Both the position numbers and the translations under genes were made by a program. From an uncultured Candidatus Saccharibacteria bacterium (lineage in GTDB: Bacteria; Patescibacteriota; Minisyncoccia; Phycocordibacterales; JACOZG01): 64,000 nt of DNA. The stretch covers positions 5,574-69,573 of the forward strand of contig CAYHYA010000001.1 of NCBI GenBank assembly GCA_964360815.1, in the 5' to 3' direction. The notes under the pieces were generated by a model that saw only the letters and a list, made by a program, of their open reading frames with translations, made no database searches and was not told the origin of the DNA. This document shows positions 1-54,295 of this stretch, one piece after another (within the stretch, counting starts at the first letter, position 1; each line of letters begins with the position of its first letter).

Positions 1-157
1 TTTTTTGCTATTACACAGATAGATCAACCGAATAAATCTTTTATAATCTTTATCACTAAGAAAAATCTTTCTCTTTTCGACTCCACGATTATAAACATGA
101 TAATACTCCCCGGGAGCAAAACTAAACTTTCTCTCCATACCACCAATTATACACCAA

Positions 158-250
158 GATCCACCAAGGGCTTTCCTTGGGAAATTGTGGGTGTGGTATA
201 ATTTTAATTTTCCATGCAAAAATCCCCCGCCGTGAAGCGAGGGATTTTTG
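158..250. repeat. ~93-bp direct repeat, copy A (promoter-like AT stretch plus terminal hairpin); flanks the MazEF-like cassette
   Basis: Near-identical to 948..1040 (atccaccaagggctttccttgggaaattgtgg...aattttaattttcca.gcaaaaa.ccc..cgccgtgaagcgaggg..ttttt). Read directly from the sequence. Confidence 0.7.
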
Positions 251-351
251 TTAGTCCCGACGCTTTGGTCGGGATCCCTATTTTACATCGGGACTACCCG
301 ATCAGGTCAACCCTGACGTCGGCACAAGAAGCTAGGGGTTAATACTGGTAC

Positions 352-675
352 CTAAAATTTATATAATTTATTCCAAATTGAAACTATCTGGTCCTTATCA
401 CTTAAACTAAAAACACCAAGCTGTTTATGGATATCGCTTTTATTCAAACATGTAATCTTTGCTAATCTTACCCATGAGTCAAGCAATAATCCTGATTGTT
501 GCCAGTTTTTAATTTTATAGTCTCCTTTATTTTTTCGTTCAGTGGTTGTTATCGGTGCTAAGATAATGTCATCATCCCCGGTATCTAAAATAACAAGGGC
601 GGGGCGTTGTTTTTTCTTTCCGTCCATCTGATTAAAAACAACTAGGACAACTTCGCCAAATTTATATTTGGTCAT
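352..675 (-). CDS. MazF/PemK-family endoribonuclease toxin (type II TA)
   Basis: N-terminus FGEVVLVVFNQ..G.KKQRPALVILD and APITT motif typical of PemK/MazF. A small partner ORF lies upstream and overlaps by 14 nt. Confidence 0.55.
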   Translation of the reverse strand: MTKYKFGEVVLVVFNQMDGKKKQRPALVILDTGDDDIILAPITTTERKNKGDYKIKNWQQSGLLLDSWVRLAKITCLNKSDIHKQLGVFSLSDKDQIVSIWNKLYKF

Positions 676-853
676 AAATCGCGTCGGATTTATTATAAGA
701 TTTCAGAAATTTATCTTTAGAAGCCCTCCGCCACAGATTTTCATGTTCTTCGTTAATAACGGCATAGTTTAAAAGATTTTGGTATTCCAAGCGAGGAATA
801 ATCATTAAATCTTTTTCCATGATTAAATTTTTCGGAATTGTTATTGTCGTCAT
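662..853 (-). CDS. Putative antitoxin partner of the MazF-like toxin (MazE/AbrB-like)
   Basis: 63-aa ORF immediately upstream of and overlapping the toxin gene. The ITIPKNL..DLMIIP segment resembles the swapped-hairpin AbrB/MazE fold. The call rests on operon position. Confidence 0.4.
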   Translation of the reverse strand: MTTITIPKNLIMEKDLMIIPRLEYQNLLNYAVINEEHENLWRRASKDKFLKSYNKSDAIYDQI

Positions 854-947
854 CTTTCCATCCTACCACCGGACTATTGAATTTTCAAGCAATTTTAGTT
901 GTACCACTTGGAACTTGGAAGTCGGACTTCCAAGTGGGAATACATCA

Positions 948-1040
948 TATCCACCGAGGGCTTTCCTTGGGAAATTGTGGATGTGGTGTAATTTTAATTT
1001 TCCACGCAAAAACCCCTCGCCGTGAAGCGAGGGGGTTTTT
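948..1040. repeat. ~93-bp direct repeat, copy B; its 3' part (1008..1040) is a perfect GC-stem hairpin plus T-run, an intrinsic terminator
   Basis: Copy of 158..250. Hairpin CCCCTCGC-cgtgaa-GCGAGGGG followed by TTTTT and preceded by AAAAA, so it is bidirectional. It lies just 3' of the minus-strand gene 1056..3011. Confidence 0.7.
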
Positions 1041-1055
1041 CTAACTATCCGAATT

Positions 1056-3011
1056 TCAAATCTGACGAAAAAAGAATAATTCTACCTCTGGGAAAGTTTT
1101 GATGGAATTTTCGACATAATCGACAATTTCCTGACTCTGCTTTATTTTTGGGTTGAGCGTCAACCCTTTTTTAGCATACTCTCTTGCCTCTTTAAATTTA
1201 CCCATATAAATATAGGCCACGGCCTTTATCCAATATGATTGGGGATTTTGTGGTACTAATTCGATGGCTTCATCTAAAATTTTTTGGGCTTCATCTAATT
1301 TATTTACTTGGAATAAATTTTGGAAAATTAAAATATCCGCCAGGTTTAATTTGGCTCGAAAATGATCTGGATTATTCTTGATATAATTCTTGTATTCAGT
1401 TTCTATAACTACTAGCTCCTTTTTAAGATTCAGCGCAGTTGATGGACTAGAAAGCACTTCGGGATCAACGGTGATTGCGCGCTGGAAATCAGTTGATATT
1501 CTCCATAAAAAGGCGTGTGGATCAACCGGAGAAGAAATTAGTCTCGGATAAAGCGGGATACGTTCTTCGGCAGATTTTACCGCTCGCATTTGCCCATTAA
1601 CTATTTCGGCTTGCAGTAGGGGCGACAACCCCCAGACCGTTGACCAAATTACAAAAAACAACAAGAACACGGATAGGGGGTATGTGATTGCCGGCCTACC
1701 GGTCTCCCAGTTTACAGTTTTTCTAACTCTTTGAAACAGTATCACCGCCGAAACCATCATAAAAGCTAAGATTGGATAGGAAATCGAGGTTTCGAAAGCG
1801 GTTTGTAATTCTATAAAATGAAGTGGAAAATAAACTAACAAAATAGCCGACAATATTCGATCATTTTTTTCTGGGGAATTTAGGGCCGAGTAAACAAGAG
1901 AAAAAATAATAACAAGATAAACCAAAATATAAAGACCTAGGCCAACCGCTCCACCATCAACCAAATGATCGATGACCACATTATGTGCTCGATCAAGCCA
2001 CGCCTCATTTCCATATTCGTCTTGCAATACCCGATTATCGTAATGCGCCTCAAAGACTCGTTCAAAATTATCCATACCCCAACCAAAAACAGGTCTTTCT
2101 AGAAAAATTTTATTTGAAACTTCCCAAGTTATCGGTCTTACAGCCGTTGCCTGCTTAAGATATATTCTTTGTAGAAAACCATTTGGGGTTACGAGTGAGT
2201 AAGACGCCCAGGATATTAATAAAACACCGAAGCTCAAAATTGAGTAAGTAAAGATTTTTTTGTTTCGTTGATTTCTTATTTTAGAAATTAACCAAATTAA
2301 AATTAACGCGAACAAAGACAGAAAGATCACATAAGCCGACGCCCTAGCCTCTCCGACAAAAACCCCAGAAAAATCGCCAGACCAAACCTGACGGTTTAAT
2401 ATGTTGGGATTTATAATAAATGAGATTGGCAAAGCATACATCCACCACTTTTTGTGTTCAGATTGAAATAAGTAATATATAGATAACAAAAAAACGCCAA
2501 AAAGATACATCCCGGCAAAAGTGGAGTTACTCAAGGTAAAAGCATTGCCGGGATAATCTTTAAAAATTACACCCAGCCCGCCAGGGCCAAATAAAGAAAG
2601 AAGGGAATAAAATGAGGTTGAAAGTATAATTATTAGTAATATTTTTCTATATTTTTCTCGATCGGAAAATACTAACCACAAAATCCAAGCAAACAAACCA
2701 AGGTTGAGAAAATACCATAACCCCGTTGTTCTTGTCGCCAAAGACCAGAAAGAGTTGTCGAAATTAAAACCGACAAAAGCAGAAATAATGAGGGAAATAA
2801 AATAAAGAAGTAACAGGAGAAGAATTGGAGATTTTGGAATAACTAAAGTCTGTTTTTTTTTGAAAAGTTTGACAGCAAACCAGATAAGCAAAAGTGAAGT
2901 TGTAGCGATTAAAAAAATCGATCGCGTTGACGAACCACCATAAAGAAAAGATTGTATATTAATAAAAGGGAATAAGACAAAAAACAAATATATTAGATAT
3001 TCTGCAAACAT
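1056..3011 (-). CDS. Polytopic membrane protein with O-antigen-ligase-like (Wzy_C) domain and C-terminal TPR repeats; possible O-oligosaccharyltransferase
   Basis: About 12 predicted TM helices. The LDRAHNVVIDHLVDGGAVGLGLY block resembles the Wzy_C/PglL/PilO loop. The C-terminal ~200 aa are TPR-like (AIELVPQNPQSYWIKAVAYIYMGKFKEAREYAKKGLTLNP). The gene is AT-rich relative to its neighbours. Confidence 0.5.
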   Translation of the reverse strand: MFAEYLIYLFFVLFPFINIQSFLYGGSSTRSIFLIATTSLLLIWFAVKLFKKKQTLVIPKSPILLLLLLYFISLIISAFVGFNFDNSFWSLATRTTGLWYFLNLGLFAWILWLVFSDREKYRKILLIIILSTSFYSLLSLFGPGGLGVIFKDYPGNAFTLSNSTFAGMYLFGVFLLSIYYLFQSEHKKWWMYALPISFIINPNILNRQVWSGDFSGVFVGEARASAYVIFLSLFALILIWLISKIRNQRNKKIFTYSILSFGVLLISWASYSLVTPNGFLQRIYLKQATAVRPITWEVSNKIFLERPVFGWGMDNFERVFEAHYDNRVLQDEYGNEAWLDRAHNVVIDHLVDGGAVGLGLYILVYLVIIFSLVYSALNSPEKNDRILSAILLVYFPLHFIELQTAFETSISYPILAFMMVSAVILFQRVRKTVNWETGRPAITYPLSVFLLFFVIWSTVWGLSPLLQAEIVNGQMRAVKSAEERIPLYPRLISSPVDPHAFLWRISTDFQRAITVDPEVLSSPSTALNLKKELVVIETEYKNYIKNNPDHFRAKLNLADILIFQNLFQVNKLDEAQKILDEAIELVPQNPQSYWIKAVAYIYMGKFKEAREYAKKGLTLNPKIKQSQEIVDYVENSIKTFPEVELFFFRQI

Positions 3012-3028
3012 AATCTCAATGATAACAC

Positions 3029-3057
3029 AAAAACTCCCCCATGAAGGGGGAGTTTTT
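3029..3057. terminator. Bidirectional intrinsic terminator (AAAAACTCCCCC-atgaa-GGGGGAGTTTTT)
   Basis: Perfect 12-bp stem with flanking A-run and T-run, between the 3' end of 3107..5245 (-) and the start of 1056..3011 (-). Confidence 0.7.
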
Positions 3058-3106
3058 GCTAGCTAGTAACTAAAGCTATTCTACTAGACTTCTATCTAAT
3101 CTAAGT

Positions 3107-5245
3107 TTAGTTCAAACCAATATATGGTGTGACAAACTCATCAAGGTTAGAAGAATAGACAATGTCGGTAGTGTCATCGGTGCTGGTATCATCCCAGTAG
3201 AAACCACCGAGCGACAAACGATACTGACCAGCGGCCCCAACAGTCGGCAAGATAGCCGTTGCCGTTAAGGTGAAGGTCTCGGTCTGACCGTCAATAATCT
3301 CGTAGAGACCAGCGGCATTAAGAGTCGTGTCGGAATTAACCAAGGTCATAGTAACGCCACCAGTGGTACCCGTACCAGCTCGATCGACAACACCTGAAGT
3401 CTTGGCCGCTGTTACACCGGAAGTCTTGGCGTCAACAAGCGACGACACATAGATATTGCCACCGAAAGCGGTAATGCTGTACTTAAGCGTGAAGGTACCT
3501 TGATCATTAGGATCAGTGGTACTACCTCCTTCAGCCCCAACAGGCATAGGGGCACTCACCAATTTAAGCTGAACTCCCTTACTGCGAAGCTGATTGGCAT
3601 CAGTAGAAACCGAACCGGTCATATCGGCATCAGCTAACTTCGTATTGGACTCATCGCGGATATCAGCCAAACCAGTGTTGTCGGTTTCGGTCTCACCTAG
3701 AACGACAGCGATAGTATCGCCCTCGGAAAGAAGATTGCCGGCAGTAGCGCTAACGGGATTAATGTCAGCCCGAATCACAACCGTAACCGTATCTCCGGCT
3801 GGGATAGTGAAGTCAACATCATCAAAGAGTACCAGCTCCGTCAGATTAGTGCTGTCATCAGTGCTAGCCAAGGTGTAAGAAGTCGTAGTATCTCCACCAT
3901 AAGTAGCAGAACCGTAGGACTGACCGTCAATGATCAATTCAATGGCCGGAGACATATCACCAGCAATCACATCATCAACATCAACAGCATCACCAGTAAT
4001 AGTAACCATGACACCTAACTTCTTGATCTCTAAGGCGGAATCGCCTTCCGCTTCAAGCGTAAAGGAAGCTAGTTCCACATCCTGTTTAGTATCAGTGGTG
4101 CTGATTTCAGCAATATGGAACTTGTTAATGGCATCATCGTCTTCGGTAATCTTAAACTCTGAATCAGCAGCAGACGCGAAACTCTTGAAGTTAAAGGTAC
4201 GAGTACCAGTGCCTGGATCCTCGGAAGTGGAATCACCCCGTCCATCAACATAGCGAACGCTAGTGATATCAGCTGTCCATGAATCGGGATCATCATCGCT
4301 GGAATCCAAGTTGCTGACTGCCGACACGGCAATCGTTAATTCGGCCGTTTCGCCAGCCTTAATGATTGCTCCATCGTCCAAAGCAATCGTCTTGGTCCAG
4401 TTGTTCTCATCAGTAAACCCAGTACTATCAACGCGACCAACTTCTTCGCCATCGAGCCAAACAGATACTTCAGTCGCATAATCCTCGAAGTCAGAGGTGG
4501 TATTTGTGCTCTCATTGAAGACAACGCGAACGGCCGTGAGTTCGAGATCAGAATTATTATCTGCCTCAACCTCAAGACCAATCACCGGAACATCATCTTC
4601 ATCCTCACCAACAGGCTCGTTAGTGAGATCAGACATTAGGGTGTAATTCTCAACAACTCCTGTGCTACCGGTCAAGCCGGTGTCTGGGGTTGTACCGCCA
4701 CCTGTGGACGGCATACAGTTGTTCGAGAGCAAATTGCCGTTCGGACAAGTGGTGCCAGTCTGCGCCGGCATACAGTTGTTCGAGAGCAAATTGCCGTTCG
4801 GACAAGTGTTGCTAGACGAACCAGGACCCGGATTTACCGGCGGATAAGTACCACCAGTCGTCGCCATGATGGCGTTGTAGGTGATATTACCGTAATAACC
4901 GACAGCCGGAGCAACTCCGTGGTCGCCCTGCCATTTGGCCAAAGCGGCCTTGGTCTGCGGACCGAATGTACCGGTCGCGCCAGCCGGAATGGCATAGCCC
5001 TGCGACATTAACCATTGTTGGAGTTTGGTTACCTCCATACCGCTATTACCAACTGTCAAAGGCGGCATCGGCACAATGTCTGCGGACATTGAACCACCAC
5101 CCTGCAAAGCACCGATTTGGGCAGTCAGTTGGGCAATTTGGGCCATTAATTGATCAACGGTCATCGTCTGGGCGCTAACCGCACCAGAGACACCGAAGAT
5201 CAAGGCCAACGCGGCCAAACCGAAAATAAATTTCTTAATACTCAT
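3107..5245 (-). CDS. Secreted cell-surface protein: signal peptide, peptidoglycan-binding (PG_binding_1-like) domain, tandem CPNGNLLSNNCMP repeats, long acidic Thr/Asp-rich region
   Basis: N-terminus MSIKKFIFGLAALALIFGVSGAVSAQ is a signal peptide. TKLQQWLMSQGYAIPAGATGTFGPQTKAALAKWQ resembles a PG-binding domain. A 57-bp tandem DNA repeat at about 4709..4820 encodes the Cys motif twice. Confidence 0.55.
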   Translation of the reverse strand: MSIKKFIFGLAALALIFGVSGAVSAQTMTVDQLMAQIAQLTAQIGALQGGGSMSADIVPMPPLTVGNSGMEVTKLQQWLMSQGYAIPAGATGTFGPQTKAALAKWQGDHGVAPAVGYYGNITYNAIMATTGGTYPPVNPGPGSSSNTCPNGNLLSNNCMPAQTGTTCPNGNLLSNNCMPSTGGGTTPDTGLTGSTGVVENYTLMSDLTNEPVGEDEDDVPVIGLEVEADNNSDLELTAVRVVFNESTNTTSDFEDYATEVSVWLDGEEVGRVDSTGFTDENNWTKTIALDDGAIIKAGETAELTIAVSAVSNLDSSDDDPDSWTADITSVRYVDGRGDSTSEDPGTGTRTFNFKSFASAADSEFKITEDDDAINKFHIAEISTTDTKQDVELASFTLEAEGDSALEIKKLGVMVTITGDAVDVDDVIAGDMSPAIELIIDGQSYGSATYGGDTTTSYTLASTDDSTNLTELVLFDDVDFTIPAGDTVTVVIRADINPVSATAGNLLSEGDTIAVVLGETETDNTGLADIRDESNTKLADADMTGSVSTDANQLRSKGVQLKLVSAPMPVGAEGGSTTDPNDQGTFTLKYSITAFGGNIYVSSLVDAKTSGVTAAKTSGVVDRAGTGTTGGVTMTLVNSDTTLNAAGLYEIIDGQTETFTLTATAILPTVGAAGQYRLSLGGFYWDDTSTDDTTDIVYSSNLDEFVTPYIGLN

Positions 5246-5540: not shown

Positions 5541-6197
5541 CTAGACTTTACTATAGCGGCTCCAGCGCCGTTCGCCGGTTTTCTTAACCAAGCCAGCAGT
5601 GGTGAGATCAGTTAGTTCCCGTTGAACGGTTTTACCGCTAAATTCGGGTAAACTTTTAGCCACTTCTTTAATGGAGAGCCAGGCGCCCGGCCGAAGCGAT
5701 TGTAGGATGGCCGCCCGGCGATCGGCTTTGGTTTTCTTGTTTCCAGCCGTCGGTCCTAGCCGACGGGCTTTAGGGCCAGTTTTTAGCCGGCGCGCGGGCA
5801 AAACTTTAGCGGTTGGGGTCGGTAAGGTTGTCGCCGACTCAAATAGAGCCGAAAGATTGTTCGGTTCATGATTAAGCCAGTTTTGAAGCACCAGATATTC
5901 TTGACGCAACAGAGCAAAATTCATGGCTGAGGCCTGACGATCAAAAGTGGTAACATCAATCAAGGACAGCAATTTGGTGATATCGGACAAAGATTGGCCC
6001 GAGTTAGTGGCGAGCAATGCGAGCAAAACATCTAACGCCTTTTCTCTTAACCGCCACTTGATCTGGTCGTTGTCTGATAGGAAATTGGTGACTAAATATA
6101 AAGCCGAGGCGAGTTTTTCGGCTTTAAGGACAATTGGAGTTTTGTCTTTTATGTCCTTTTCTGGCATCTTGTCCTTTATTGAGCGTTCACCGGTCAT
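5541..6197 (-). CDS. Hypothetical protein with C-terminal winged-helix DNA-binding domain
   Basis: C-terminus WLSIKEVAKSLPEFSGKTVQRELTDLTTAGLVKKTGERRWSRY resembles an ArsR/DeoR-type wHTH. No family was recognised for the N-terminus. Confidence 0.35.
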   Translation of the reverse strand: MTGERSIKDKMPEKDIKDKTPIVLKAEKLASALYLVTNFLSDNDQIKWRLREKALDVLLALLATNSGQSLSDITKLLSLIDVTTFDRQASAMNFALLRQEYLVLQNWLNHEPNNLSALFESATTLPTPTAKVLPARRLKTGPKARRLGPTAGNKKTKADRRAAILQSLRPGAWLSIKEVAKSLPEFSGKTVQRELTDLTTAGLVKKTGERRWSRYSKV

Positions 6198-16723: not shown

Positions 16724-18169
16724 CTAATTCCCGATTTGGAAAATCCCCGACCCGCCGTAAATCGTTTCGCCGTTGACCACCGTGGAGAGACGGAACCAGT
16801 AAGAACCAGGTGTAATCGAGGCGAAAGCCACATTTTTACTACCAGTGTTCTGATTTAAGGAAGGAGTAAAATTACTAACTAATTGGTTATTGGGCGTCAT
16901 CAGTTCGACTCGAATTAGATTGCCATTGGGGACATTACTTGATGTCCAAGTCACCATTTTGGGCGAATCGGCCTGACGCCAAAGATTGTTCGCCAACGGG
17001 GCTGTCACATTGATCGAGGCGGTGGTTTGAGCTGGCGGCGGATTAGTACACTGGGTCGTATTGAGAGTGCAACTACCACTACAAATTAGAGAACCGAGAG
17101 AGTAACCATAAGAACCGCAAGTCAACGAACCGAAATTGTTGCCATCACATTGTTCTCCACCTTCAATTAAACCGTTACCACAAGTAGTCGCGGGCGGCGG
17201 CGGAACGGAAGTCGGAGCGGCGGTAAATTGGAAAATCCCCGACCCGCCGTAGATGTTTTGCCCGTTAACGACAGTGGAAAGACGGAACCAATAGGCGCCA
17301 GTCGGCAAACTGGAGTTGGTCAAACGACCAGACTCAACGCCGTCGTTTGCGGTAGTGAAATTAGAAAAACCAGTGGCCGGCTGATTGTTGGGGGTCCAGA
17401 GCTCAACCAAAATCGTGTTGCCGTCTGGAATGTTTGTGTCCGACCAATAAATCACCGGTCCGTTATTCACCGTCCATGAGCTGTTAGCCGGCGGCGAAGA
17501 CACATTGATCGTGACGGGACCAGGAGGAATCGGAGGTGAGGGTGGTGAAGTGAAATCGTTGCCGGTACTACCGCTTGCCGGCAGACAACTGTTCGAGAGT
17601 AAGTTGCCGTTCGGGCAAACAGAAGTCGAAGAGGGTGAACTGGCGGTAATGGTGAACCAGCGACTCCAACCGGTGATGGTCTCGCCGTTAACCGTAGTGG
17701 TGATTCGGACGCGATATTGGCCCGGCGCGGGCTGACTGTTCAAAACAAGGTTCTGCCGGCCGTCGTTTATAGTATTGAGAACACTTGTCGCACCGGTAAA
17801 TCTATCGGCCGAATTTAAAACTCGGACATCAACTAATGTTTCTGGCGGTAGGTCTTGACTCCACCACCGTACCGGCAATTCCGATCCGGCTTCATAACTA
17901 CCACCGCCCGGTACCGTGACGGTGATACTGGAGGTGGTGGTGGAATTATTAATGCTGGTTGAAATTCGTTGACCGATTGCTTGTCCCTGTAAAACTAGCA
18001 ACTGTTGTTGAAGTTGGGCGATCAAAGCATTGAGCTGGCTGATCAGTTGTTGCAAATAAGCCGCTGAGATGTTTTGCGTCTGCGCTTCGACTGGAGGTAA
18101 ATTGATAAAACCGATCGAGACGATAATTAATAAAAGACTAACAAAAACAAACCTTGATTTTCTATTCAT
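16724..18169 (-). CDS. Secreted repeat protein with three ~95-aa beta-domain repeats, a Myxococcus-type cysteine-rich repeat (CGNGxxExGEQCDxG) and the CPNGNLLSNSCLP motif
   Basis: Signal peptide MNRKSRFVFVSLLLIIVSIGFINLPPVEAQ. Internal repeats end ...YWFRLSTVVNG(Q/E)(N/T)IYGGSGIFQ. The DNA repeats at 16738..16803 and 17230..17296 were read directly. Confidence 0.55.
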   Translation of the reverse strand: MNRKSRFVFVSLLLIIVSIGFINLPPVEAQTQNISAAYLQQLISQLNALIAQLQQQLLVLQGQAIGQRISTSINNSTTTSSITVTVPGGGSYEAGSELPVRWWSQDLPPETLVDVRVLNSADRFTGATSVLNTINDGRQNLVLNSQPAPGQYRVRITTTVNGETITGWSRWFTITASSPSSTSVCPNGNLLSNSCLPASGSTGNDFTSPPSPPIPPGPVTINVSSPPANSSWTVNNGPVIYWSDTNIPDGNTILVELWTPNNQPATGFSNFTTANDGVESGRLTNSSLPTGAYWFRLSTVVNGQNIYGGSGIFQFTAAPTSVPPPPATTCGNGLIEGGEQCDGNNFGSLTCGSYGYSLGSLICSGSCTLNTTQCTNPPPAQTTASINVTAPLANNLWRQADSPKMVTWTSSNVPNGNLIRVELMTPNNQLVSNFTPSLNQNTGSKNVAFASITPGSYWFRLSTVVNGETIYGGSGIFQIGN

Positions 18170-33939: not shown

Positions 33940-33957
33940 GACGCCCCGTTTTGGTAA

Positions 33958-34076
33958 CACTACCTCACGAGTCCGACCATTCGGGTTGGCGTCGTCGCGA
34001 TTCCACCAATTGATCTTGAACTGTCTATCGTTCCAGTTGGCGTAGACGGCCTTGCCATCAGAGTTACGCGAACTCG
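33958..34076 (-). repeat. DGR template repeat (TR), 119 bp, Asn-codon (AAY) rich
   Basis: Aligns without gaps to VR 34352..34470. 13 of 15 differences fall at TR adenines (coding sense on the minus strand). The track's ORF 33874..34176 most likely just spans this non-coding TR. Confidence 0.8.
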
Positions 34077-34339: not shown

Positions 34340-35143
34340 TTACGAGTTTAGCACTACCTCACGAGTCCGACCATCCGGGTGTGCGCCGTCGCGAAGCCAC
34401 CAACCGACCTTGAACTGTCTACCGTCCCAGTCGGCGCCGACGGCCCTGCCATCAGAGTAACGCGAACTCGTAATGGTCACGTTAATTAGGTCGAGATGAC
34501 CGCCCTCGATTTTTTGGTGGTGCAATGCTTCCAACAACATCCGCTCGCCAATGGTTGAGTATATAAGGCCACGTTGATCGAGTTGGTCCGGCGAAAGATT
34601 GGAGTATTCTTCACTTGGTTCCACCGCCCCTTCGGTCCAGAGAGCATAAACACTCTCTGGCCGAGGTTGGTTTATGGTAACGGCCTGATCGAGATTTTTC
34701 GTGTAACGAAAACACGGAAAAGCGACTTCGTTAACGCGGTAAATTTGATCGAGCGACAAGTTGGGGTCAACGACGAGTAGCGTTGGTTGCCGAAACCTAC
34801 CTGTCGGCAGGGTCGGCACGGTCAGTTTGTTCAAATCTATTCGTCGTTGGTGCTGATCAAGATAATATTGTTCCCACCACTCGAGATCGTTACCAATATT
34901 GACAGCATCGTCAGTCGCACCGATTAAGAAATTACCGACCCTTCTCTGCCATTCTCTTTTTTCCTTGACCAGTTTTTCGGCCTGATCAAAATCTATCGTT
35001 ATCGGCATCGCGTGAACCAAAGCACTGCAAATTTCCCTCGTTTGACCGAACGTCATCGGTTTCTTAACCACCGCTGGAACAGTACCGCTTTTACTCATGG
35101 TCAGTTTCCTTTCACTTAATTCAAAGACCCCGGCTAAAGGCAC
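34340..35143 (-). CDS. DGR target protein (variable protein); the C-terminal ~40 aa are encoded by the VR
   Basis: C-terminus ...SSRYSDGRAVGADWDGRQFKVGWWLRDGAHPDGRTREVVLNS compares with the TR-encoded SSRNSDGKAVYANWNDRQFKINWWNRDDANPNGRTREVV. No signal peptide was detected. Confidence 0.7.
   Translation of the reverse strand: MPLAGVFELSERKLTMSKSGTVPAVVKKPMTFGQTREICSALVHAMPITIDFDQAEKLVKEKREWQRRVGNFLIGATDDAVNIGNDLEWWEQYYLDQHQRRIDLNKLTVPTLPTGRFRQPTLLVVDPNLSLDQIYRVNEVAFPCFRYTKNLDQAVTINQPRPESVYALWTEGAVEPSEEYSNLSPDQLDQRGLIYSTIGERMLLEALHHQKIEGGHLDLINVTITSSRYSDGRAVGADWDGRQFKVGWWLRDGAHPDGRTREVVLNS
34352..34470 (-). repeat. DGR variable repeat (VR) at the 3' end of the target gene
   Basis: See the TR entry. 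The final ~21 nt (ggtcggactcgtgaggtagtg) are identical to the TR, including its adenines, which is consistent with an IMH-like unmutated end. Confidence 0.8.
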
Positions 35144-52457: not shown

Positions 52458-54295
52458 TTGTAATTTATTCTGACCGCTCCAACCACGGGCGTGGTGTTGC
52501 CGTCACCGGTTAAAAAGACGCGATATTGTAACCACTGGTTGCCGTTATAACTCTGATCAACCAGCGCGCCGCGCGCGACCGTAAAATCTGGCGACCAAAC
52601 CGCCGCGGCGAGACCGGCTTGGCTTGAAGCAACACGAATTTGAAAACGCACGGTGCAGGTCGGACTACAAGCGGGCAAAACTTCATCCCAACCAATCAGT
52701 TGAATTGGTGACGGGTTGCCGAGATCAAAGGCCGAAGATATCAGTTCGCCGGCCGTCTCATAACCACCGCCGGTCAAGCGTAAAATTACGCCGTTGTTAC
52801 CGACCGCCCAACCAGCGCCAACCGAAGGCAAGACCAAACCATTAAGCGTTCGAATTGTGCCGGTGAGCAAATCGTTCCAATTCGTGCCGTCAAATTGACG
52901 ACTCGTGCCATTTGAACCAACCACCAAACCACTAAGTCCGACCGAACCCTCAACTTCATTCCAGGTTTGACCGCCAGTCGAGTAAACGGTATTCCAGTTG
53001 CCGCCGTTCCAACGTCTGATTTGGCCATTCGTGCCGGCGACCCAACCATCGTTCGCGGTGAGCAGGAAAACGCTGTTCCAGGTGACACTGCCGAAGTTGA
53101 TAAAAGAATTCCAACTTGCGCCGTTCCAACGAACGATCGCGCCACTGCCACCAACCGCCCAACAATCATTAGGACTCACACACCAGACGCTGTTTAGGTT
53201 GACGTTCGGCGCGGTCGGAGCTGGCCCGATTCGCGACCAAGCACTACCGTTCCAGTGAAGCGTGAGTGGGCCGCCCGAGCGAATCCCGACCACCCAACAA
53301 TCGTTATTGGTTAGGCAAAAAATACTGTTCAAGCCAACATCGGGAATGGCCGCGACCGGATTGAACCGGGTCCAACCAGTGCCGCCAGTATTCCGAATAA
53401 TCAATTCACCGCCACTCGCGTTGCCAACGGCCAAGCAGTCGCCGGCGCTCACGCAAAAAACACTGTTCAGGTTAACATTCGGAATGCTCGCCGACGGGCT
53501 GACTCGTGACCAAGCGCTACCGTTCCAGTGTAAAATCATTTCGCCCTGGTTCGCCACCGGCCCACCGGTAATGGCATTACCGACCGCGAAGCAATCGTTA
53601 GCACTTCGGCAATGAACATCGTTCAGGGTTTGCGTGGTTGGAGAAATTTCGTTAACCCAAACCAACGGCCGAGAGCGCAACTTCAGTTCCCCGCCGGTCT
53701 GGTCTAACCGACCGTCATCACTTAAATAGCGCGTTGGATCAGACCAACTGACCTGTCCGGCGCCGCCCGACCAGTCGGTTTGCACCCAGTCATTCGAATC
53801 CCAGTTAGTGAAGAGGGTGGCCCGCTCGACTTCGTTGTTCGCCCCCGAAGCCGCCGACCAACTAACCATCACTCGAGCGGTCTGACTCTCAAGGTCAATG
53901 GTGCCGGCGGGACAAACAACGATGGCGCGAGTAGCGTCACGACACACTGGAGCGAAAGAAGTGGTGCGAGTAAATTGACCAACTGTTTCCGTGGTCCCCT
54001 CGCCCAAGAAACGCCATTGCCCGCTCGTCGAGGTGGCGACACTTTGCGTAAAAACTAATTCGTTCCACGCACCATCGCGAATCGAGCGCACTGCCTCGAG
54101 ACCCTCATCGGCTAAAGCCGCGGCGGCAAGATAGTCGCCGCCTTGAATTAAAGAAGTGAAACCGCCAAGCGTTAACGACACCATCACCGCGGCGAGCAAA
54201 GCGAAAATCGCCAAGGCGATAATCACCTCCATTAAGCTTTGGCCGCGGCGGCCAAAATTCGGAAAATTAATTTTCTTCAACCAAGCCAAGTTCAT
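52454..54295 (-). CDS. Large minor pilin with prepilin N-terminus and ~6 beta-propeller-like repeats; putative pilus-tip adhesin
   Basis: GQSLMEVIIALAIFALLAAV prepilin signal. Repeats of WNGSAW/WNGASW...N.LNSV.C....DC.AVG are YCF48/BNR-like propeller blades. Confidence 0.55.
   Translation of the reverse strand: MNLAWLKKINFPNFGRRGQSLMEVIIALAIFALLAAVMVSLTLGGFTSLIQGGDYLAAAALADEGLEAVRSIRDGAWNELVFTQSVATSTSGQWRFLGEGTTETVGQFTRTTSFAPVCRDATRAIVVCPAGTIDLESQTARVMVSWSAASGANNEVERATLFTNWDSNDWVQTDWSGGAGQVSWSDPTRYLSDDGRLDQTGGELKLRSRPLVWVNEISPTTQTLNDVHCRSANDCFAVGNAITGGPVANQGEMILHWNGSAWSRVSPSASIPNVNLNSVFCVSAGDCLAVGNASGGELIIRNTGGTGWTRFNPVAAIPDVGLNSIFCLTNNDCWVVGIRSGGPLTLHWNGSAWSRIGPAPTAPNVNLNSVWCVSPNDCWAVGGSGAIVRWNGASWNSFINFGSVTWNSVFLLTANDGWVAGTNGQIRRWNGGNWNTVYSTGGQTWNEVEGSVGLSGLVVGSNGTSRQFDGTNWNDLLTGTIRTLNGLVLPSVGAGWAVGNNGVILRLTGGGYETAGELISSAFDLGNPSPIQLIGWDEVLPACSPTCTVRFQIRVASSQAGLAAAVWSPDFTVARGALVDQSYNGNQWLQYRVFLTGDGNTTPVVGAVRINYK

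Follow-up and report, generated by a model that had tools for sequence, protein, structure and literature searches.

RAYT genes (REP-associated tyrosine transposases, also described as TnpA_REP) are bordered by REP (repetitive extragenic palindrome) or BIME (bacterial interspersed mosaic element) hairpins, and gene and hairpins together make up the so-called REPtron (Nunvar 2010; Ton-Hoang 2012, PMC3333891; Quentin 2018, PMC6006769). In some E. coli strains, tnpA_REP is replaced by a hicAB toxin-antitoxin pair (PMC3333891). Here, we describe a related arrangement at the start of a 64,000-nt stretch of DNA (the window; contig CAYHYA010000001.1 of assembly GCA_964360815.1) from an uncultured Candidatus Saccharibacteria bacterium, in which two near-identical elements of about 93 bp, R1 and R2, bracket a PemK/MazF-type toxin-antitoxin pair. 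A sequence-only reading had taken the ensemble for a repeat-bounded mobile or recombination cassette, possibly akin to a MITE (miniature inverted-repeat transposable element). A key neighbor was missed, namely a RAYT-like Y1 HUH nuclease gene directly downstream of the left copy, which was out of sight because it runs off the window edge. In our judgement, the two elements are probably duplicated upstream-flank modules of this Y1 gene within a REPtron-like locus. As defined in PMC3333891 and PMC6006769, the locus is REPtron-like, minus the GTAG foot of the hairpins and the genome-wide dispersal of the repeats.

A public contig from Hainich groundwater (L001) equals window positions 1-3905 with 0 mismatches and continues past the window start. 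It carries the complete Y1_Tnp gene (219 aa, starting with ATG at window position 138) and a third copy of the repeat, R3. The order of the locus is Wzy_C/TPR membrane protein gene (Wzy), R1, toxin/antitoxin, R2, Y1 gene, R3, with the repeats all in direct orientation and all genes of the region on the minus strand. The repeats and the Y1 gene comprise the following features, in window coordinates unless stated otherwise:

940..1039, minus strand: R1, the distal repeat copy; in gene-strand order terminator hairpin, spacer of ~30 nt, core of ~50 nt, and ~10 further nt
1013..1034, unstranded: R1 terminator hairpin, bidirectional and Rho-independent, 17 nt 3' of the Wzy_C/TPR stop codon
954..970, minus strand: R1 core hairpin CCAAGGAAAGCCCTCGG, degenerate, with a T-to-C change that gives an A.C mismatch within the 6-bp stem
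149..249, minus strand: R2, the proximal repeat copy, with terminator hairpin and spacer followed by the core, up to the Y1 gene promoter
217..250, unstranded: R2 terminator hairpin (inverted repeat and RNA folding)
164..180, minus strand: R2 core hairpin CCAAGGAAAGCCCTTGG, 6-bp stem intact, 5-nt loop, centre ~34 nt before the Y1 start codon
148..155, minus strand: extended -10 element TGTATAAT, 8 nt before the Y1 ATG; same layout in L005 and L012
1..138, minus strand: first 46 of the 219 codons of the Y1 HUH nuclease gene (Pfam Y1_Tnp, RAYT-like), the remainder lying beyond the window start
L001 4426-4475, that is, 521-570 nt before window position 1: R3, the third core copy, directly after the Y1 stop codon

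R1 and R2 form a direct repeat of 91 nt with 91 % identity (159-249 versus 949-1039 on the plus strand, start-to-start spacing 790 nt), much as originally perceived, and gapped blastn stretches the pair to 149-249 and 940-1039 (101 columns, 89 % identity, one gap, E 5e-30). A 22-nt core sequence has only two sites in the 64 kb at up to 3 mismatches and was matched in 0 of 100 shuffles; further repeat copies, which the sequence-only reading had proposed to look for, were not detected in the window by blastn-short, self-blastn, or pattern searches with up to 3 mismatches. Each module combines a Rho-independent terminator hairpin, a spacer, and a core of ~50 nt with the hairpin CCAAGG-AAAGC-CCTTGG. 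The succession of A-run, GC stem, and T-run, already recognized in each copy, was borne out by RNA folding into stems of 13-15 bp (at 1013-1034 and 217-250), and the terminator stems of R1 and R2, as read from the sequences, differ by a single compensatory change from T-A to C-G. The part common to R1, R2, and R3 spans ~42-50 nt and ends in the core hairpin (42-nt core: AAATTAYACCACAYNNNCAATTTMCCAAGGAAAGCCCTYGGT), which has ATTT(C/A) before it and T(G/A) after it. R3 consists of the ~50-nt core alone, without a terminator, and is 92 % identical to R2. It provides the start codon of the next gene (ATGA overlap with the Y1 stop codon) together with the first 17 codons (MTIQITPHPQFPKESPW...); this gene is GC-rich and encodes a membrane-anchored protein, for which the Lamin Tail Domain (LTD) match is weak and below the Pfam cut-off. 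A downstream core serving as the first 17 codons of the next gene is seen at L001 4424-4475 and likewise at L005 2678-2731.

Situated 17 nt past the stop codon of the Wzy-like gene (3011..1056), the R1 hairpin could indeed act as its terminator, as had been suggested, and the R2 hairpin likely terminates the toxin-antitoxin operon and insulates the Y1 gene. The latter looks leaderless or nearly so, because the extended -10 box lies only 8 nt before the ATG. The last ~10 nt of R1 align to the start of this -10 box in R2 but form no -10 box now. Since R1 holds the terminator, the spacer, and the first -10 bases, a block of ~100 nt and not a bare hairpin would have been copied. R1 is probably a decaying relic of the upstream flank that still terminates the Wzy gene, given the A.C mismatch in its stem and the loss of its -10 box. 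R2 and R3 are best explained as a functional pair, the conserved flanks of the Y1 gene.

Read on the opposite strand, the 5' arm of the core (AAATTAYACCACA), which is conserved, gives an extended -10 box, TGTGGTRTAAT; the box is found at 194-202 and 984-992 (plus strand) and also in R3 and both L005 copies. In R1 and R2, this box faces the bidirectional terminator ~20 nt off and would yield a transcript of ~45 nt; in R3, transcription from it would enter the Y1 gene at its 3' end in antisense direction. No tRNA or structured RNA was detected in window positions 1-1100 (ARAGORN; Rfam at gathering thresholds), the sole match in the window being tRNA-His at 47.4 kb. An extension of the repeat leftward into the 3' end of the Wzy gene was rejected as not significant (local alignment score 16, reached by 107 of 2000 shuffles). 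The motif TAGNTAG-CAAAAA shared there is a generic terminator flank of this lineage, the general form of which is TAGNTAG-CAAAAA-GC stem-TTTTTGC. The short-read contigs L002, L003, and L004 of this population end in or near R1/R2, which shows that assemblies break at these repeats; L004 ends in sequencing-adapter sequence (GATCGGAAGAGCACACGTCTGAAC) just ahead of R2. Similarly, the GTDB source contig of L047 has an N run between two palindrome copies. For annotation, the repeats can be treated as assembly breakpoints in this population.

The Y1 protein matches Pfam Y1_Tnp with 36.4 bits (cut-off 23), and its HUH (H79, H81) and Tyr (Y139) positions are intact and invariant in the family alignment. 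As sequence-level similarity to solved structures is negligible (only ISDra2 TnpA, E 0.76), a fold search was needed. The best PDB match of the AlphaFold model (pLDDT 88) is 4ER8, E. coli TnpA_REP with a REP hairpin (E 4.7e-6, TM 0.64 on target), followed by the TnpA proteins of IS608 and ISDra2. More than 4,900 homologs were found, mostly labelled as Patescibacteria "transposase", and clusters of the Y1 protein at 90 % identity occur on 1-9 contigs each.

The core is retained around related Y1 genes. On contigs L005-L011, which encode a Y1 protein with 80 % identity, a 44-nt core lies on both sides of the gene in direct orientation (93-95 % identity), and its differences from the window core change jointly upstream and downstream. 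The joint changes extend to a downstream copy that is coding (it encodes the N-terminus of the next gene), in which they alter amino acids. Because upstream and downstream copies change together, even in a coding copy, a constraint at the DNA level or homogenisation is indicated by the sequence comparison. In L012 (Y1 protein 61 % identical), the flanking palindrome is a different one, ATCCAAGGGTWACCCTTGGAT, with the stem CCAAGG/CCTTGG kept. The gene order after the Y1 gene (membrane protein, LTD protein, rplJ/rplL) is common to the lineages with 80 % and 61 % identical proteins, this downstream synteny being seen in only a few GTDB loci.

The same pattern emerged across the family. Among GTDB loci from Patescibacteria, the 130 nt upstream of the gene and the stop region have an exact match of at least 13 nt in common in 55 of 65 cases, versus 0 of 45 control pairs taken 1 kb away. 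The shared match is usually a palindrome of 17-30 nt. The palindromes are centred near -40 and +660. Beside the loop, their AGG/CCT hardly ever varies, and the outer stem changes from locus to locus with pairing maintained by compensation; as the covariation count was made on sequences chosen as palindromes, it is descriptive, and the comparison of shared flanks with the controls is the independent test. In 44 loci, 91 copies lie no more than 200 nt from a gene end, 25 are located in coding sequences, and 13 are at a distance of 0.2-2 kb, and no palindrome was found in 130 kb of sequence further away. The loops are inverted between the two flanks in about half of the family loci, so that orientation is mixed family-wide. 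In L046, L056, and L064, additional palindromes lie distally, beyond a single unrelated gene. Moreover, the GC content of Y1 genes is ~10 points lower than that of their flanks in 26 of 26 GTDB loci, even where the downstream order is conserved.

In about a quarter of the homolog loci (~12 of 49), a further palindrome copy resides inside the Y1 coding sequence itself, at ~+156 to +184 (L012 at 6153-6179, L016, L023, L026, L027, L028, L029, L035, L065, L073, L076, and L103 at 2391-2409). This copy encodes the Q-G-x-x-L of the family motif "IQGLPLD", the middle residues of which (LP, ST, RT, QP, VS, RS) vary in step with the palindrome of each locus, and it is often inverted relative to the flanking copies; the window lineage is devoid of it. 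These observations point to a DNA-level constraint that would act within the Y1 gene.

Compared with described REPtrons, the locus shares the single Y1 HUH gene with intact HUH and Tyr positions, the closest predicted structural resemblance to TnpA_REP in complex with REP DNA (4ER8), and lineage-specific hairpin copies that border the gene on both sides and vary in number near it. A cognate palindrome borders the gene in the window lineage (R2/R3), in L005-L011, and in the 55 of 65 loci mentioned above. Downstream gene order is likewise kept between related lineages, and palindromes occur in both orientations across the Y1 family. More loosely, the toxin-antitoxin modules at these loci parallel the hicAB replacement in E. 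coli. However, the hairpin foot carries neither a GTAG nor a CGTC tetranucleotide (an alignment of the palindromes from 45 loci shows no GTAG), the palindromes keep strictly to the vicinity of the gene in the 64 kb and in the 44 loci scanned whereas REPs reach hundreds of copies, and an internal coding copy is present in about a quarter of the Y1 loci. The Y1 protein is also longer than the E. coli chain in 4ER8 (219 versus 165 aa) and scores below the NCBIfam equivalog cut-off, and the unit of the window lineage exceeds a bare hairpin (core of ~42-50 nt, plus the terminator in R1/R2).

As far as the sequence tells, the repeat is part of the flanks that are conserved around the Y1 gene, and two copies of the upstream one enclose the toxin-antitoxin pair. 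This flank module comprises a bidirectional Rho-independent terminator, closing the preceding operon, and the ~50-nt core, the hairpin of which would be the single-stranded-DNA recognition site of the Y1 protein. By analogy with TnpA_REP and REP as well as IS608 TnpA and its end hairpins, the Y1 protein may bind or cut the core hairpins, with the R2 hairpin as putative recognition site. For the origin of the duplication, we infer that a piece of ~100 nt from upstream of the Y1 gene, with the terminator, the core, and the first part of the -10 box, would have been duplicated as the toxin-antitoxin operon arrived, or, alternatively, that this operon would have recombined into the Y1 upstream module. 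Y1-mediated strand transfer, recombination of a toxin-antitoxin circle at the module, and plain segmental duplication are possible routes.

Several observations weigh against this explanation. The NCBIfam model REP_Tyr_transpos gives 42.8 bits, below its cut-off of 80. R1 and R2 share terminator and spacer besides the core, so that a hairpin-only (REP-like) spread is inadequate. The palindrome lies in the -35 region of the Y1 promoter and could be a double-stranded operator. The contigs with the exact toxin, Wzy, or Y1 protein (L001-L004, L096, and L097) all have the same layout, and none of them is a cassette-less variant that would provide the empty site that the sequence-only reading had called for; no excision junction was found either, at a population coverage of only 3-5x. 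Finally, unrelated brackets surround toxin-antitoxin cassettes in loci without the Y1 core (L102, L104, L105, and L107), and bracketing may therefore be a general property of toxin-antitoxin cassettes and not of the Y1 gene.

This last point leads to the relatives of the toxin-antitoxin pair, which were found in 15 other metagenome loci with toxin identities of 77-90 % in 12 and 41-59 % in 3. The pair of open reading frames (ORFs) is kept at 71-84 % nucleotide identity in 12 other loci in which both can be aligned over most or all of their length. Nucleotide homology of the 15 loci to the window ends at or near the two ORFs, with the exception of L007/L102, where ~60 nt of the 3' untranslated region (UTR) are shared. 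That the repeats travel with the toxin-antitoxin pair was ruled out, since homology stops at the ORFs and the core is absent elsewhere: the 15 orthologous loci share the ORFs and neither repeats nor core. In several of the loci, the orthologous cassettes are bracketed by other, locus-specific direct repeats, the brackets being terminator and/or promoter modules:

L102/L007: bracket of 82 nt, 87 % identity
L103: bracket of 62 nt, 100 % identity
L104: bracket of 68 nt
L107: bracket of 122 nt

The closest toxin-antitoxin ortholog, L099, has no bracket visible within the 172 nt of upstream sequence available. In L105 (positions 1-4695 of JGI contig Ga0208373_1008796), at least five toxin-antitoxin-like cassettes follow one another with repeated intergenic units of 60-130 nt in between: PemK, NYN, antitoxin plus PemK, antitoxin plus an 80-aa toxin, antitoxin plus a ParE-like toxin, and a pair read from its ORFs as nucleotidyltransferase/HEPN-like, a label that is unverified by family search. 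Three of the L105 antitoxins have the N-terminus MTTITIP in common, whereas their partner toxins belong to different families.

From these findings, one could argue that the repeat is unrelated to the Y1 enzyme and is a by-product of small-cassette shuffling. The toxin-antitoxin operon would have entered at a generic terminator/promoter module, through template switching or homologous recombination of the Campbell type, or a plain segmental duplication would have taken place; in each case, local intergenic sequence including the Y1 upstream region would be duplicated. The locus-specific terminator/promoter brackets in L102/L007, L103, L104, and L107, the L105 array, and the generic terminator form of the lineage all fit this scenario, as does the extent of the R1/R2 homology, which covers terminator, spacer, and core, stops at the -10 box, and looks like the copy of an intergenic block. 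We nevertheless regard it as unlikely. It leaves unexplained why extra palindromes cluster within 2 kb of Y1 genes family-wide and why the block duplicated independently in the window lineage and in L103 contains a Y1-type hairpin both times; moreover, L099 shows no bracket (within its 172 nt). L103 is an independent second case of the window architecture. A palindrome, CCATAGGTTAAACCTATGG, brackets its orthologous PemK pair and recurs around a Y1 gene at a distance of 1.4 kb, with two copies upstream, one inside, and one downstream of that gene. An identical 62-nt unit of palindrome plus promoter stands before the PemK pair and before the gene that follows it. Upstream of the toxin-antitoxin pair in L103, a 61-aa ORF is a truncated N-terminal duplicate (81-266 versus 1529-2122; 77 nt, 88 % identity) of the 197-aa gene that precedes the Y1 gene. 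By its sequence, this duplicate indicates a segmental duplication that would be tied to the insertion of the PemK and HicAB modules there.

A second alternative derives from the IS200/IS605 family of insertion sequences (IS; IS200, IS608, ISDra2) and the related PATEs (palindrome-associated transposable elements), which resemble the locus in their Pfam Y1_Tnp HUH enzyme. R1, toxin/antitoxin, and R2 would then form a non-autonomous, PATE-like cargo unit with R1 and R2 as left and right end hairpins, which the Y1 enzyme excises as a single-stranded circle and re-inserts ("peel and paste"), two tandem units sharing R2. The three cores in direct orientation on the gene strand suit this proposal, as does the directly adjoining Y1 HUH gene with same-strand subterminal hairpins on both sides in the window lineage. 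The Y1 unit between the upstream and downstream hairpins measures ~730 nt, which we take to be close to the size of IS200. IS200 carries a terminator hairpin at its left end, and here, too, a terminator hairpin lies directly upstream of the gene. The layout of palindrome, one gene, palindrome, Y1 gene, and palindrome recurs in L046, L056, L064, and L103, and both the Y1 genes and the toxin-antitoxin pair consistently form islands of low GC relative to the host. On the other hand, insertion sequences would be expected in multiple copies or at differing insertion sites, whereas only one locus exists in the window and its contigs, and a second copy of the unit was not found in the 64 kb, the GTDB representatives, or IMG/VR. 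The toxin-antitoxin orthologs elsewhere lack the core, with homology stopping at the ORF boundaries, and the R1 hairpin is mismatched. Strict left and right ends on one strand misfit the inverted loops in about half of the family loci, and the neighbor genes kept downstream across Y1 lineages with 61-80 % identity speak against frequent transposition. Besides, the Y1 protein is ~70 aa longer than solved TnpA proteins and structurally nearer to TnpA_REP, and no pairs of empty and occupied sites turned up by which a target tetranucleotide or cleavage sites could be defined. We hence consider a PATE-like unit to be quite improbable.

Least convincing, and in our opinion very improbable, is the idea that the core palindrome is a double-stranded operator for a regulator (the Y1 protein or another one), the duplication of which would place the toxin-antitoxin operon and the Y1 gene under common control: its centre ~34-40 nt before the start codon, abutting the extended -10 box, in the window, L005, L012, and most loci, the 62-nt palindrome-promoter unit before the PemK pair and the following gene in L103, and the conserved TGTGGTRTAAT box on the opposite core strand of the window lineage would agree with it, but the copies at the stop codon and inside the gene (~+165) are not at promoters, R1 lies ~90 nt upstream of the toxin-antitoxin promoter with a damaged palindrome, and solved relatives bind single-stranded hairpins, PMC3333891 reporting no binding of double-stranded substrates.

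Two further comparisons can be set aside. MITEs and Correia or ERIC (enterobacterial repetitive intergenic consensus) repeats are likewise short non-coding hairpin elements at gene ends and possible terminators. The elements at hand, however, are direct repeats without terminal inverted repeats or a target-site duplication, and they number only two in 64 kb, besides an adjoining partial copy. Outside the window, 185,579 GTDB species representatives contain no exact match to a core 22-mer, and IMG/VR none to a 24-mer with two degenerate positions. The MITE-like part of the sequence-only reading was accordingly abandoned, while its repeat-bounded cassette stands as a description of the anatomy, of a non-chance repeat, and of a low-GC, variable, island-like region, with an origin by recombination being possible. 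It had also named a simple local duplication as the outcome that would speak against it; dispersal is indeed absent, yet the core is kept around orthologous genes elsewhere. Chromosomal integrons, for their part, resemble the arrays described here in their small cassettes including toxin-antitoxin pairs and in hairpin repeats of 60-130 nt that are homogeneous per locus and genome-specific, and a toxin-antitoxin module could stabilise a recombination-prone array. However, the repeats are without the core sites RYYYAAC and GTTRRRY, and no IntI-type integrase was seen beside the array, where the nearest gene is the Y1 HUH gene and not one for a tyrosine recombinase (the window was not systematically searched for IntI). 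The repeats are terminator/promoter modules, plus an HUH-gene flank in the window, and the cassettes have their own promoters. With its defining features missing, the attC reading was ruled out.

The bracketed operon and its surroundings contain the following additional features:

352..675, minus strand: PemK/MazF-family toxin, 107 aa (Pfam PF02452, E 5e-12)
662..853, minus strand: putative antitoxin, 63 aa, N-terminus MTTITIPKNL, 14-nt overlap with the toxin start
860..888, minus strand: toxin-antitoxin promoter, sigma-70-like (TTGAAA, 17 nt, TAGGAT, with TG extension)
913..935, unstranded: near-perfect 23-nt palindrome ACTTGGAAGTCGGACTTCCAAGT between R1 and the toxin-antitoxin promoter
252..296, minus strand: hairpin with 12-bp stem, made by an insertion of ~40 nt (254-293) relative to the orthologous 3' UTR of L007/L102
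302..316, minus strand: small 5-bp hairpin TCAGG-GTTGA-CCTGA in the 3' UTR of the toxin-antitoxin operon
1056..3011, minus strand: membrane protein with Wzy_C (O-antigen ligase-like) and TPR domains (Pfam), 651 aa, 36 % GC, upstream of R1

The toxin-antitoxin assignment at 352..853 is thereby upheld. A PemK/MazF toxin, a small overlapping ORF upstream, and a promoter-like site of its own are what characterizes type II (MazEF/PemIK) systems, and judged by these sequence features there is nothing unusual about the operon as a type II module. The 63-aa ORF has no Pfam match; its position and its MTTITIP N-terminus, which is kept in the cassette arrays, would fit an antitoxin. The palindrome ACTTGGAAGTCGGACTTCCAAGT adjoins a 7-nt tandem duplication, CTTGGAA (context 904-938), is absent from the orthologous cassettes, and may be an operator. 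The cluster of small hairpins noticed at 254-340 resolves into the 12-bp and 5-bp stems listed. The insertion at 254-293 begins directly after a GTAG (~297), a layout resembling a classical REP, and the window contains no other copies of this hairpin. The 302-316 hairpin is kept in L007/L102 through a compensatory change (TCAGC...GCTGA). Window positions 1-3000, rightly described as AT-rich, have 32-42 % GC compared to 50 % for the whole window. In composition, the Wzy and Y1 genes (36 % GC each) and the toxin-antitoxin pair (31-33 %) make up a low-GC block in a 50 % GC genome, which is consistent with acquired DNA.

Self-blastn furthermore revealed other direct repeats in the window, at 33955-34076 and 34349-34470 (122 nt, 86 % identity), 16736-16809 and 17228-17301 (74 nt, 82 %), 53175-53257 and 53448-53530 (83 nt, 75 %), and 4709-4758 and 4766-4815 (50 nt, 96 %). 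The last pair lies inside the gene for a 712-aa PG_binding-like surface protein and encodes its recurring motif TCPNGNLLSNNCMP.

Summed up, the toxin-antitoxin pair and its bracketing by repeats are ordinary, and the value of the locus lies in the nature of the repeats. No paper describing a REPtron-like arrangement in Candidate Phyla Radiation bacteria was found in the literature searched. The arrangement departs from the textbook REPtron in that the hairpins stay at the gene, co-evolve with it, and sometimes lie inside its coding sequence. A far-reaching interpretation, to which we would give little credence, is that the RAYT-like HUH family of Patescibacteria, each gene having a private and never-dispersed palindrome, is a self-contained single-strand recombination module that captures, duplicates, or exchanges single-gene cassettes in its neighborhood, toxin-antitoxin pairs for example. 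If true, it would be an HUH-based counterpart of the integron platform, and the array in the window would record a single such capture. Of greater interest as a lead is the family-wide pattern of gene-local palindromes, including the copies in coding sequences. If the Y1 protein does act on these sites, it would offer a compact system for studying the roles of a domesticated HUH nuclease without dispersed REPs, and one could ask whether HUH nucleases shape the small variable islands of reduced genomes, such as those with toxin-antitoxin and cell-surface genes.

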